NCBI RefSeq assembly: GCF_018977255.1
Contig: NW_024704742.1
Span: forward strand, 32,428,001-32,492,000
Reading direction: 5' to 3'
DNA length: 64,000 nt
From: Callorhinchus milii
Taxonomy: Eukaryota
Shown: piece after piece, positions 3,201 to 9,200 of the stretch
How the letters are laid out: every line of letters starts with the position of its first letter
Position numbering within the stretch: position 1 is the stretch's first letter
Program-made: the position numbers and the translations under genes
Notes under the pieces: generated by a model
What the model was told of the DNA's origin: nothing
What the model saw: the letters and a program-made list of their open reading frames with translations, nothing else
Database searches by the model: none

Positions 3201-6200
3201 ATTGGCCTGCAGAGAGGCAAGAAGCTGCTGGTTAAACTCCGCACCTCCAATTGGTGGAACCATCACTCAATGGGAAGAGATGTGTGCCTGAGCTGCGGAC
3301 AGGAAGACGGTAGCAATGCTTTCCCACATTACATGCTGAGATGCGTCGCCCACCAGGAAGCTCGCAGGGAATTCCTTGTACTAGTGAGGACTCAAACCTG
3401 CTCACACTATTGACTATCTTCCTTGGGCAGGGTGGGTCTTCCTGGAGCTGAACTGGCTCCAAAGTGACATACTTGGCGATGGAATGTCAGAATCCAGCCA
3501 TCCTTCTTTTGCGGTCTTGGTAGTCCGGTTCGTAAGACAGCAGTATTCCGTGGTACTGCTAAACCCAGCCCAGCCTGGCTCATCGGCAGGATCTGGAAGG
3601 GCAGACCAGTCATTGGGGGCAGGGAGTCATCCCACTCAGCCCTTGTTAACCCTGAAAGCCAAAGCCCCAATGGGAAGGGTGGTCCTATCTGGACAAGCAG
3701 TGGGAAAGCTTGCTGGACAGCAATATCAATAGCATGCTATGTGGTTTAGCTGTTTAGACTCCAGCAGTACCCAACGCACACTTTGGGATCCCCAAGCCTT
3801 GGCTCTTGCCAACCTGCTCCTAATACTTTCCGAAATTAGTTAAGGTAAGCAGGATGCGTCCGTCAAGGGAGAGAATGTGCATTCCATTCCAACAATCTAT
3901 CTCTGGGATTTCCATGTGTAGGTGGGAGGCATGGAACTCTGTTTGGTTTGGATACTCTTAAGCATGGTGATGAGTTTTCGCATTGTGTCAGACACCTGGC
4001 TGACAAAAACATTTATATAAAAAAAATTGTAGGAAGTAGTAGGTTAGTGTGTTAATCATCTATAATAAAGGAGGAGAACAAGATATTTGCATCTTGGTTA
4101 ACAGCTTCCTCGGGTAAGTAGAAATTTCCCAATTACAATCCACATGACTCCATTCAGCTTTGCCGCACCTGAACTCATTACAGAAAGAATTGATTGCATT
4201 GCAACATCTCTGACCCTGGGAGACGTAATTTGAATGCATATCTTCATGAGTACTGGAAGTGTCTGTTCAGTGACATACCTTGGGAATGATTCTTGTCTTC
4301 AAGTTAGGCTTATTAAAAATTGGCTCCAAGTCACTGCACATTACAGTGTATCCTGTGAAGCACTTTGGCTATCCACCTGTGAAAGGTGCTCTACCAAAAG
4401 TAAGGATTGATGTTTGGATACAGTAGTGTGTCAGAATCCTCGTGTCGATGAGAAGGTCAAACACTGCTGGTTTCCCACAGCCTAACCCAGGAGCTGAGGC
4501 CAGTGAGATTCTCTGATTGTTGATATGTTTATCAGTTTTGGCAGGAGAGGGCACATTCTTCTCTTCTGGGCTTCACTGGTGATTTTTATTCTCCTCCGGT
4601 TAGTAAAGAGAGTGTGGTTTTTATAATTGGGGTTTCTGACCAATGCAGAAAAGATGGTTTGTATCTTCCAAGATCAGTAAACTAAAAGATTCACCCATTA
4701 GGTCTTCCAGCAGTGCATAATAAAACACAATGCTGATGAGCCAGGGTTTCTACTGCTGATCAGTATCCAGTGACCTCTTGCTGAAAAGTTTGTGTGGACA
4801 TTGGGTGAGCATTGTTTCCAATATTCTTTATGGTCAAAGAACCAACTAGTCCTTATAGTCTGGGCTCACACATAAATAATGGTTATTTGAATTGCAGTCG
4901 TGGAACTTACTTCGTCATTTTAGCAGAGGGTTGGGGAAAAATAACCACAACTGAAAAGAACGAGAACTGAAATCTATGAATTATTGCATTCATTTATACA
5001 TGTTATATCCTATTAATGTACAACATGTTTACTGAGGTAGAGTGGACACAGGAAAATTAACATGCAGAATAATTCAGTAGAAACAATTCTTGTAATTACT
5101 GATTTTTTAAAAGGTACATTTTTGTATGTAGCATCAGGTGTTTATAATCTGGCATTTTTGCATTTTGGACACTAAAATAATTTTATTGGAAGATAATGTC
5201 ATCATTTCATCTTCAATTCTTGTTTGTTCCTCATTGTAAAGCTGGAAAGATGGTCTTGCCTTCTGCGCACTCATCCACAGACATCGACCTGACCTTATTG
5301 ACTTCTCCAAGCTACAAAAGGTCATCTGTCTGATTGGTAGCATGCCAATGTGCAGTAGCTTGTGCTTTTTGTTTTTGCATGATCTGAGGGAAGTGGTGGC
5401 TTTTATTAACATGAGGCCTCAATGCTGCATGTAATTACCATACCAAGCTTACTACCAAAGGTTCTTGAAAGAATGTCCATTTACAAATTCTTGTTAATAA
5501 ATGAGATTTGTAAATCTTACATGTTTTTCACAATCCATTAATATTGATGATACTACTATTTTTATTTATATATATATATATATGTATATAACCAAATGCT
5601 GTGCACATAGAAGCATCTTTTGAGATGATTTTGAATTCTCTCTGGTTCTGGCTCTCTGTATTTTAGATCCTATGCTAGAGAAGGCCTGATAGGCTGAATG
5701 GCATTATATTTTATTTGCAACATGGAATTGTTGCTAAAATATAAACTTTTGTTTTCCTGATGCCAGAAGCTTTGTACGTTGAATTTAATGAAACAAAGCA
5801 GTCAAAATCCATGGAGTTTCTATCAAAATTTTAATTTAAACTCGAACATTTAATCATTTATTCAACAATTACTTCCAACCAACAGTCGGCAAAAAACAAT
5901 ATTCTTGCCTCAAACATTATATTTGGTCACCATTCTGTGACTAGAATATTGTTTGGTATATCTGAATTTTATACTTGAATCGTGTCAATATGGATACAGT
6001 ATAGCAATATTGCTTAAAAAAAAAGTATAATTACTGATTTAATCTCAAATCCAAATCTTAAAAGGTTATTAAATTGAAATTCACTCACTTTTGCTCCTGC
6101 GATTTACACAAACTTACATTAAAATAAATATTGTTATTGATAAAGATGTTAATTTCCCCCTCTTTCATTTCCTGGTCCTTTTTCGTATTCTTTTTATATC

Positions 6201-9200
6201 AGTTGTTTGTCCATCTTCTCCTTCAGTTTCCAAATTCAACATCATATTTCAATTTTCGCTTTCTCCCTCTCACTGCATGCTCAATGATGTGTTCTGTTGC
6301 TCGCTCCAATGTTATCTGGTTGGTGTGTGGACACTGCATGTAGCTGGAAGGATGGACTAGCATTCAGTGCCCTTATTCACAGACACAGGCCTGATCTGAT
6401 CGATTATGACATACTGAAAGAGGTATTTAACTTGCCCCTGGTTTCTGTTCATTGCACAACATTGATTAATCTTACAGTATGTTTAAAAAGATTTCTGATG
6501 AACTAAATATGTAAGTCATATATGATAGTTGTATGCTTTTGATGAATTTGAGAATGGTGATCGACTAGTGATGATCATTAGGTATACTTTGCATACCAGG
6601 GACACCGCATCAAGTATAAGTATTAGAGCTGCATTGATGTCAGCACGGGGGATACCTAAACATTGTCTTTATACAGAGTAACCTTAATGGTGCATCTGAT
6701 TCTGAGGAAACTCCAGCTCAGGAAGAACAAATTAGAGCCTGCACTTAGCTCCTCCGTACTATGATACATTATAATTGACTGAATGAAAAGTTTCCCAGAT
6801 TGAAGTGTCCGTTGACTATAGCAGCTAGCAGCCAGTAGGAAAACTACACAGATAATATTGCATGTGTACTGAATTTCTGTATTTTATTGAAGTGATGCAC
6901 TCCATGCAGCTCTGCCAAGCTTTTATTGATTGTGTTGCACCTTCTTATTCAAAGGAGATGTTACTGAGGAACAGAAGGATAAGTACCTGGTGAACAAAAC
7001 TCCAGTACCCGGTGTTGTTTTGCCCACAAAACACACAGTCAAAACCACTTTACATTATATTACATTATAACCTGTAAAGAGCTGTGAGACATCTTGGCGA
7101 TGTGATAATAATAATATTAATAATAAAAATAATCCCTGCATTTGATATAACATCTTATCAGGTCTTCAAGATATATCAAAACACTTCACAAAATATACTG
7201 CAAAATGAATGGACTGTATATTTTGTGGGTGAAATGCAGCAGTCAGTTGTGCACTGCATTGTCCCACAAACAGTCGTGGATTGAGTGACCACAGTTTTTA
7301 TTTTTTTTATTTTGAATGAATTATTACCCCTGGAAAAGCGATGCACCAATCGACTAACAACCGGGTTTCTACTTACTGCTAGGAAAACAGAGGCATGTGG
7401 AGTAAGGAAACCTGCTCAACATTTCGCCCTGCTGGGAATTAAACCCAGGTCCTCTCCACTAAACTACAGGACTCCACTATAAGATGCAATTTCAAATGCA
7501 AGGATTATTATTATTACGCTGCAGGAAACATTGGCCCTGGGATTTTTGTCATGTTTTTGCAGGATCAATAGTTCAAGTATTCAGTTTGCGCCATGTAATT
7601 CCACAAGACCAGTCTTTGAAATAAGAACTTCTTGTCCTCGGCAACATCTTTATTTGCTAACCTAATGTGTAGTTTCAGAAAGCTTGGGACAGTGCATGTA
7701 GTTTGTGTTGTAGGCAGTATTCATTGGATCCAATTTTTTTAAAAAAAACAGCTTGGATGGGTTACCAATGATGAATATTTACCCAGCTAGAGTTACTATT
7801 TTGCTATGCTGATACTTAAAGTAGTGAAAACCATTAGCGATGATCATTTCCAGTTTTCTGCCAAGGTACCAATTACTCTCTTAATATCATTTCATAAATG
7901 TAGGATGATGCTCTTTACAACTTGAATCTTGCCTTGGAGATTGCAGAAAAAAAACTGGATATCCCCAAGATGCTGGATGCTGAAGGTAATTTGCATTTCA
8001 CTGTCCAGTACTGTTAGATTACTGATGCTGTACAACTCCATTAGCAATGAACATATCTGGAGGTATATTGCAGATTGACTAGAATAAAAGAAGGATGATA
8101 CATGTTGTCTTTATTATCTTGACTGTTTACAAGGCAATAACTGTGATGTAATGTGATGTAATGTAATGTGATGGTCCCTGAGCTCTTTTCCAAAATCCCT
8201 GTTTTAGTAAAACATAACATTTTCTTTCCAAACAGATATAGTAAATACAGCAAGACCTGATGAAAGAGCTGTTATGACTTATGTATCCTGTTACTACCAT
8301 GCATTTTCAGGTGCACAGAAGGTGAGGTCAAGCCTAGAGACCACCTCTGACCTTTCTATCTTGAGCCTTCTGACCTCCAGCTTTCATTTCTTACCTGTGT
8401 CATAGTTTATACATTTTTCAGTGTATTTTAGATTCTTTGTATTTGTCTTCCCTTTCTGCTACTGCATTGTTCCTACATTATTCTTTTCAATTCCTAGCAC
8501 TGTTGTGATGTTCAATGGTACAGCATGTTTTCCAAAATCTTAATTTCATTATGGTCTGACCAATGGTTGGCAGTGTCTCATCAGTTACTCTTTTAATGGA
8601 CTATCAAGTTAGAAGGAGCATTTATTCATCTTCTTGTCAACGCTATGTATTCTCCTAGGTTTGCTTCACCGTTGAATAAAGCTAAGTCATTGAGGTATCT
8701 ACCAAACTACAACCCTGCCATGGTCAAACAAAACCTTGTTCATTCAGTCCTTGTCTATTCAATCCCTGTTCTTACCCTTTCCCTTCTCCTCCCATCTTTA
8801 TTCTCCTCTCCTCTAGATATTGTAAACACGCCGAAACCTGATGACAGGGCTATTATGACGTACGTTTCATGTTTCTATCATGCTTTTGCTGGAGCAGAGC
8901 AGGTACTCTCCACACATTAATTACTGTAACGTTCTGGTGCCTGCAGTGTTTGTGTGCATTATACTCCAACACTAAACCTTCCTCTCTTCCCCTTCCCCAT
9001 CTCCACTTCCAAAATGCCTGTACGTTACATACATCCACTCAGCATAGGAAACCTAGGAAATCAGGAGCAGGTGGAGGCCATTGAGCACTTGGCAGATCTT
9101 TTATTTCCATGTCCTACCCTTTTGCCAAACTTCTTAATAGCTCTTGCATCTGTCTAACTCTTGCTTAAACATTCCTATTGATTCTATCTCTTCAGCTTTC

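Follow-up and report, generated by a model that had tools for sequence, protein, structure and literature searches.

Two tandem copies of exon 6 in the ACTN2 gene of the chimaera Callorhinchus milii, a probable third pair of mutually exclusive exons in alpha-actinin-2

Duplicated exons make alpha-actinin a textbook example of diversity among isoforms, and the papers and reviews consulted count two pairs of this kind. Here, we describe what would be the third, formed by two tandem copies of exon 6 (6a and 6b) in ACTN2, the gene for alpha-actinin-2, of the chimaera Callorhinchus milii. The pair lies in a stretch of 64,000 nucleotides (nt) of the RefSeq assembly GCF_018977255.1 (contig NW_024704742.1, positions 32,428,001 to 32,492,000 of the forward strand), which is called the window below and in which coordinates are counted. 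Exons 8a and 8b of ACTN2 and ACTN4 are mutually exclusive homologous exons that have been dated to the bilaterian ancestor and are kept in human (Abascal et al. 2015, PMC4494069); the same paper gives two pairs for the actinin family with no exon 6 pair among them, and another gives one ancient event in ACTN2 and ACTN4 (PMC8373072). Like 6a and 6b, exons 8a and 8b are a tandem pair of equal length in the actin-binding head of the same gene, of which one is used per mRNA, but they are situated two exons downstream and encode the end of the CH2 domain and the start of the neck. The 19a/19b pair of ACTN1 and ACTN4 exchanges a calcium-sensitive for a calcium-insensitive EF-hand and gives rise to tissue-specific actinin forms; these, too, are either-or homologous exons, with the differences that they affect the EF-hand rather than CH2 and that the two exons are unequal in length. 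The review by Murphy and Young (2015, PMC4550062) treats only exon 19 and splicing of the actin-binding domain, and has mammalian ACTN2 encoding 19b only.

The mammalian counterpart of 6a is already known as a regulated exon. Exon 6 of human and mouse ACTN2 is a 79-nt orthologue of 6a with regulated inclusion, proximal downstream RBFOX sites, and an omission that shifts the reading frame. In human cardiomyocytes, its inclusion requires RBM24 and RBFOX2, peaks of RBFOX2 in enhanced cross-linking and immunoprecipitation (eCLIP) lie directly 3' of the exon, and skipping causes a frameshift that destabilises the mRNA (bioRxiv 10.1101/2025.10.28.685214); the dependence on Rbm24 is also given in a review (PMC12137872). 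The alternative described in this mammalian work is skipping with mRNA decay, and no second exon 6 is mentioned, whereas in the chimaera another coding exon can take the place of the first. Our search of the actinin and exon-duplication literature, outside which Lek et al. 2010 falls, brought up no account of two alternative copies of exon 6. Automatic annotation (UniProt and RefSeq isoforms) already contains the pair, so that its sequence is public, but it does not seem to have been recognised as a conserved switch.

We consider it very probable that 6a and 6b are a real, ancient, and mutually exclusive homologous exon pair, almost certainly functional, which constitutes a third either-or switch beside exons 8 and 19. 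Judged by its sequence, the gene is the ACTN2 orthologue, which encodes sarcomeric alpha-actinin-2. The 72-residue open frame around 6b retrieved the actinin alpha 2 record of C. milii (UniRef A0A4W3IUV0_CALMI), which itself uses 6b, and a tblastn search of the window with this protein matched all coding exons between positions 78 and 29833 in 19 exon alignments, 13 of which are at 100%. The precomputed Pfam domains of the record (PF00307, PF00435, PF13499, and PF08726) correspond to CH domains, spectrin repeats, EF-hands, and the calcium-insensitive EF-hand tail, and its closest solved structure is that of human alpha-actinin-2 (4d1e, 1687.9 bits over 876 residues). Separate ACTN1-like and ACTN4-like genes (87% in the exon tested) are present in the same genome on contigs C9 and C45, respectively. 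A first-pass annotation of the window, made from the letters alone, had assumed a mammalian gene, an assumption that has to be replaced by C. milii ACTN2; its name for the duplicated exon does fit the usual numbering, since the known 8a/8b pair sits two exons downstream.

Both copies are on the forward strand and share a length of 79 nt, an AG before and a GT after the exon, and the same phase. Exon 6a (5242..5320) encodes the common form, with Cys at position 8 and a basic tail, and exon 6b (6344..6422) the alternative form, with Ser at position 8 and an acidic tail with a terminal Glu. They are flanked on the same strand by two constitutive exons: exon 5 (1746..1833) with AG/GT ends, which encodes the start of CH2 and matches residues 153-181 of A0A4W3IUV0_CALMI at 100% in tblastn, and exon 7 (7904..7985, 82 nt), which is likewise matched by this protein. 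On re-checking, the lengths, splice dinucleotides, shared phase, and translations that the first-pass annotation had given for the two exons proved exact, and so did its junctions at 1833, 5242, 5320, 6344, 6422, and 7904, with one correction at the end of exon 7, which is 7985 and not 7986.

The two copies are identical in 54 of 79 bases and in 20 of 26 residues (77%; tblastn E 3.9e-12), and synonymous differences are present in 14 of the 20 codons for shared residues, as had been counted before. The Nei-Gojobori estimate, which the dN/dS comparison proposed earlier called for, gives 17.5 synonymous differences per 16.5 synonymous sites, i.e., saturation, with a dN of 0.13. Over 300 nt upstream and downstream, the flanks of 6a and 6b share only chance matches of 9 bases (E at least 0.26), in line with the earlier impression that the surrounding introns are unrelated. 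The reading frame is open through exons 5, 6a, and 7 as well as through exons 5, 6b, and 7. When both copies are placed between exons 5 and 7, a stop codon occurs 17 codons into 6b, and when both are left out, one occurs 7 codons into exon 7. Because joint use and joint omission each lead to an early stop, exactly one copy can be present per productive mRNA, so that the either-or use enforced by the frame, as originally put forward, is borne out on both sides.

The 6b type is not confined to the chimaera. A search with residues 160-215 of a goose (Anser) record of 6b type as the query yielded the best 120 of 1145 matches, and of the 121 ACTN2 records examined thereafter, 15 were of 6b type and 106 of 6a type, with the same 26 positions replaced and identical ACTN2 flanks. 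The fish records of 6b type are those of C. milii (A0A4W3IUV0_CALMI) and gar (W5NIS2); turtles are represented by Eretmochelys (X1 and X8), Emys (X6), and Lepidochelys (X4), and seven birds by Anser, Grus, Colinus, Callipepla, Apteryx rowi (X4 and X5), A. mantelli, and Dromaius (X6 and X7). Typical of 6b are Ser or Asn instead of Cys at position 8 and Asp at position 22 (His in gar), and at the final residue Glu replaces Lys in 13 of the 15 records. The 6b exons of chimaera and goose agree in 23 of 26 residues, which exceeds the identity of 6a and 6b within either gene, and over the 26 residues, mean identity is higher within the types (22.8 for 6b and 24.1 for 6a) than across them (20.0). In the maximum-likelihood tree of the exons, 6a and 6b need one change each, an outcome reached in 0 of 500 label shuffles; the vertebrate 6b exons all lie on the same side of one branch, the support of which is weak (56/92, 58% of the bootstrap trees). 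Since 6b exons are closer to each other than to 6a, the pair, as dated by these comparisons, is older than the divergence between the cartilaginous and the bony lineages of jawed vertebrates. Frame, splice sites, and protein have been kept while silent sites became saturated, which argues that both copies are under purifying selection as coding sequence. The earlier proposal of an old tandem duplication with selection on both copies is upheld by this retention of 6b from chimaera and gar to turtles and birds, with chimaera and goose at 23/26 as against 20/26 for 6a and 6b. For annotation, this is a warning that the disagreement over exon 6 among the ACTN2 models of birds, turtles, gar, and chimaera has a biological cause. 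A cyprinid-like genomic open reading frame (ENA contig, 1619 bp) reads through a 6a-type copy and, ~300 nt (100 codons) later, a second copy of 25 residues with its own AG/GT context, which, by its sequence, could represent 6b of a teleost in diverged form and with one codon fewer.

Records of 6b come from database protein models, and in the database isoforms 6b takes the place of 6a and is not added to it. Ten of the 15 records (all nine NCBI XP models and the gar record) combine 6b with the non-muscle-type exon 8a, and two bird isoforms combine it with 19a as well as 8a. This pairing of 6b with 8a, a linkage taken from automatic models, points to a non-muscle or early-differentiation isoform of ACTN2. 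In RNA, splicing of 6a is seen directly: one contig of 1066 nt joins 1343-1401, exon 5, 6a, exon 7, exon 9, and exon 10. None of the joints listed for four runs over 1250-12150 involves 6b, a result that is uninformative on its expression as repeats swamped the tables. The 79 nt of 6b offer only three sampled words to a sequencing-run index, and none of the runs listed for them is recorded as RNA; two of the four runs, among them the one that has a single 6b word, show low depth over the introns too, so that this word may come from unspliced RNA or DNA. The repeats are three interspersed elements in ACTN2 introns (3434-4525, 7074-7801, and 11078-11805), at which the summed contig depth reached thousands to tens of thousands, with a peak of ~49,000, in all four runs. 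The same RNA contig joins 7985 to 10828, i.e., exon 7 to exon 9, without 8a or 8b, and is frame-shifted, exon 8 being 86 nt long. It resembles the exon-8-skipped form of human ACTN2, which is also frame-shifted and is degraded when QKI is missing (PMC7782589).

The intron between the two copies (5321..6343, forward strand, 1023 nt) carries the RBFOX-type motif UGCAUG on the sense strand at 5376, 5426, 6274, and 6335, and the shorter GCAUG at 5340. Four copies of UGCAUG compare with the 0.29 that the remainder of the window would predict (Poisson P 2.4e-4); this number was reached in 1 of 20000 shuffles, and no other interval of 1023 nt in the 64 kb has more. Downstream of 6a, GCAUG lies at +20 and UGCAUG at +56 and +106, and upstream of 6b, UGCAUG lies at -70 and -9, the nearer one inside the acceptor. 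(U)GCAUG elements are accordingly located within ~300 nt of both exons, downstream of 6a and upstream of 6b, which is the RBFOX-type layout. The ACTN1-like and ACTN4-like paralogues of the same genome, which have one exon 6 each, lack UGCAUG in the vicinity of that exon. The acceptor region of 6b (6227..6343, forward strand) has a 115-nt AG-free stretch, a pyrimidine-rich tract that lies far upstream, GUGUGUG at 6323-6329, and UGCAUG from -9 to -4; among eight acceptors compared, it has the lowest proximal pyrimidine fraction (0.45) and the longest AG-free zone. Such a layout is commonly seen in regulated exons whose branch point is far upstream, and the acceptor of 6b would be of this weak, distant-branch-point type. 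Partitioned UC-, UA-, and UG-rich tracts have been described in front of mutually exclusive exons, with ACTN2 among the examples (PMC7969005). By the position rule, RBFOX bound downstream of an exon promotes its inclusion and RBFOX bound upstream represses it (named in bioRxiv 10.1101/2025.10.28.685214). Going by the motifs, RBFOX-type factors on the UGCAUG cluster may set the choice between the copies, with the downstream sites promoting 6a and those at the acceptor blocking 6b. Muscle, heart, and neurons, which are rich in RBFOX, would then be predicted to make 6a, and RBFOX-poor cells would be able to make 6b.

For the protein, residues were numbered from the 4d1e alignment, in which the position in A0A4W3IUV0_CALMI minus 3 gives the human residue. 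Exon 6 corresponds to human residues 180-205 and spans the end of the originally mapped region (165-181) for phosphatidylinositol 4,5-bisphosphate (PIP2) and the second CH2 helix, which ends in R192. This residue, the first Arg of the HRHR segment, is kept in both copies, and it forms the PIP2 platform together with R163 and R169 (PMC4259493); the statement of the first-pass annotation that the exchanged segment adjoins the PIP2-linked HRHR is therefore apt, R192 being inside exon 6 itself. The exon 6b form has Ser in place of Cys187 (Asn in most birds). As had been noticed earlier, the CH2 tail turns from basic to acidic: the charge of the last six residues in chimaera is +2 in 6a and -1 in 6b, and in birds and turtles, residues 201-205 change from Ser-Lys-Leu-Asn-Lys in 6a to Asp-Lys-Leu-Asp-Glu in 6b. 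The swap would exchange the second CH2 helix and the loop that follows it (human 180-205) with R192 retained, and the acidic tail of 6b would add negative charge to that face of CH2. The CH2 domain is described as net negative and as a negative regulator of actin binding (PMC13055992). That 6b weakens or retunes phosphoinositide regulation, affinity for F-actin, or both is conceivable from its charge and the published maps, albeit somewhat improbable on balance. If confirmed, the pair would offer a natural variant for testing CH2 charge and phosphoinositide regulation, one that is conserved from chimaera to birds and undescribed for human.

How far the pair reaches beyond the jawed-vertebrate ancestor is a separate question, in which ACTN4 takes a central place. 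The exon tree falls into two parts, one with eight 6b exons, four ACTN4 exons, and one shark record, and the other with thirteen 6a exons, the exon of the ACTN1-like gene, and those of invertebrates, a division with a support of 87/94 that has to be read against a tree of 26 columns and an unsettled bootstrap. Raw identity over the 26 residues is 21.4 between 6a and ACTN4 and 20.8 between 6b and ACTN4 and so does not favour a link of 6b to ACTN4. The first-pass suggestion that 6b resembles exon 6 of ACTN4 consequently has some backing in the tree grouping and is not favoured by raw identity, and the suggestion built on it, that the pair predates the vertebrate genome duplications, is weakly supported for the same two reasons; from the sequences at hand, we regard such an origin as possible but doubtful. 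The ACTN1-like and ACTN4-like genes of C. milii each have one exon 6 and both have the 8a/8b pair; no second exon 6 was found in either within ~10 kb around the first. The single exon 6 of the ACTN4-like gene is 78 nt long in the assembly, as a run of C lacks one base there; the resulting break of the frame is either a homopolymer assembly error or a real defect.

On a speculative view, to which we give limited credence, the ancestral vertebrate actinin had three switches, at exons 6, 8, and 19, and following the two genome duplications ACTN4 kept a 6b-like exon, ACTN1 (and ACTN3) a 6a-like exon, and ACTN2 both, a state that the chimaera retains at all three positions; mammals would later have lost 6b and come to the on/off control by RBM24 and RBFOX2, in which skipping of exon 6 leads to mRNA decay, and the 6b form would be an ACTN2 of non-muscle type in which phosphoinositide or actin regulation is altered. 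The tight, frame-shifting control of human ACTN2 exon 6 in heart development may, accordingly, be left over from a lost isoform switch.

Outside the vertebrates, gene models of two molluscs (Nucella lapillus and Tegillarca granosa) contain tandem copies of the homologous CH2 exon, the first beginning with Trp and the second with Phe, each of which is kept between gastropod and bivalve. They resemble the chimaera pair in that the same CH2 exon is doubled in tandem; unlike vertebrate 6b, however, the mollusc copies group with the invertebrate and 6a-type exons, and the records are read-through models that include both copies. They are probably an unrecognised either-or pair that arose by an independent duplication. 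Models of Acipenser sinensis and Tubulanus polymorphus repeat a larger block that includes exon 6, at distances of 83 and 240 residues, with identical copies. These look like artefacts of assembly or gene modelling and were not taken for exon pairs.

Several observations weigh against the reading of 6a and 6b as a functional switch. Of 12 C. milii protein records, 11 use 6a, and a single database model, A0A4W3IUV0_CALMI, is what speaks for expression of 6b in the chimaera. All 21 listed ACTN2 records from 11 shark and ray species have 6a only, even though the 6b query favoured 6b forms; elasmobranchs may have lost 6b, or it may merely be unannotated in them. In five of the 15 records of 6b type (C. 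milii, Anser, Grus, Colinus, and Callipepla), which stem from other pipelines and may reflect exons picked by homology, 6b is combined with the muscle exon 8b; the 15 records are automatic models and therefore do not amount to 15 independent RNA observations. Furthermore, the regulation by RBFOX is read from motifs in one species, and the effect on the protein is derived from charge and published maps. The predominance of 6a in the records of C. milii and of elasmobranchs, together with an acceptor of 6b that is the weakest of the eight compared, would suit a dormant relic in the chimaera, intact in appearance but unspliced, of which the database protein is a homology-based model. We hold this to be improbable, as an unused copy would have decayed, whereas 6b has kept its frame, both splice sites, and its 23 residues in common with goose over a time in which the silent sites between 6a and 6b became saturated, and the UGCAUG cluster around it looks maintained as well.

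If 6b were mainly a poison exon, it would be included together with 6a, lower the output of ACTN2 by its stop codon, and yield no second form of the protein. Such a role is compatible with the stop that joint inclusion brings 17 codons into 6b and has a parallel in human, where mis-splicing of exon 6 controls the level of ACTN2 via decay (bioRxiv 10.1101/2025.10.28.685214). It would need no conserved protein, though, and what has been conserved in this case is the amino acids rather than the silent sites, while the database isoforms carry 6b as a replacement for 6a and not as an addition, all of which leaves this explanation very little probability. An equally slight chance is given to the idea that there is no single ancient duplicate and that 6b either had a separate origin in each of several lineages or came to resemble ACTN4 by homogenisation. 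The molluscs, whose own tandem pair lies apart from vertebrate 6b on the tree, do show that this exon duplicates recurrently; the vertebrate 6b exons, however, share derived residues (Ser or Asn at position 8, Asp or His at 22, Glu at 26), fall on one side of a branch, if with the weak support given above, and have flanks that are specific for ACTN2. One ancient duplicate that is used in alternation with 6a thus is the reading that we prefer.

With the pair at exon 6, chimaera ACTN2 has homologous exon pairs at three positions (6, 8, and 19). On the forward strand, the first copy of the known exon 8 pair (8a, 8236..8321) matches residues 236-264 of A0A4W3IUV0_CALMI at 72% in tblastn, and the second, muscle-type copy (8b, 8817..8902) matches the same protein at 100%. 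Exon 19b (26937..27002, forward strand) is the EF-hand exon used in A0A4W3IUV0_CALMI and is identical to its residues 771-792 (100%). A 19a-type exon, with approximate bounds (~26498..26575, forward strand) and an EF-hand of the calcium-sensitive kind, was located by a tblastn search in which the 19a part of isoform X5 of kiwi served as the query (73% over 26 residues, E 2.6e-10). It is situated 360 nt 5' of 19b, and chimaera ACTN2, like the bird ACTN2 isoforms, retains the exon 19 pair that is said to be absent from mammalian ACTN2.

A near-copy of the ACTN2 region is present on contig C3 (~56,758,918-56,767,262), with 99.8-99.9% identity over two overlapping stretches of 3 kb that include introns, and with exon 10 as well; it probably stems from a duplication within the assembly or from a segmental duplication of very recent date. 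Two NCBI accessions carry the same protein of 897 residues. Further along the window, a Pterin_bind exon at 53815-54117 (E 3.7e-15) is compatible with a methionine synthase gene beside ACTN2, an arrangement known from human. Downstream of the ACTN2 stop at 29833, a minisatellite of ~4.5 kb (31816-36300) is open in one frame over 829 codons.

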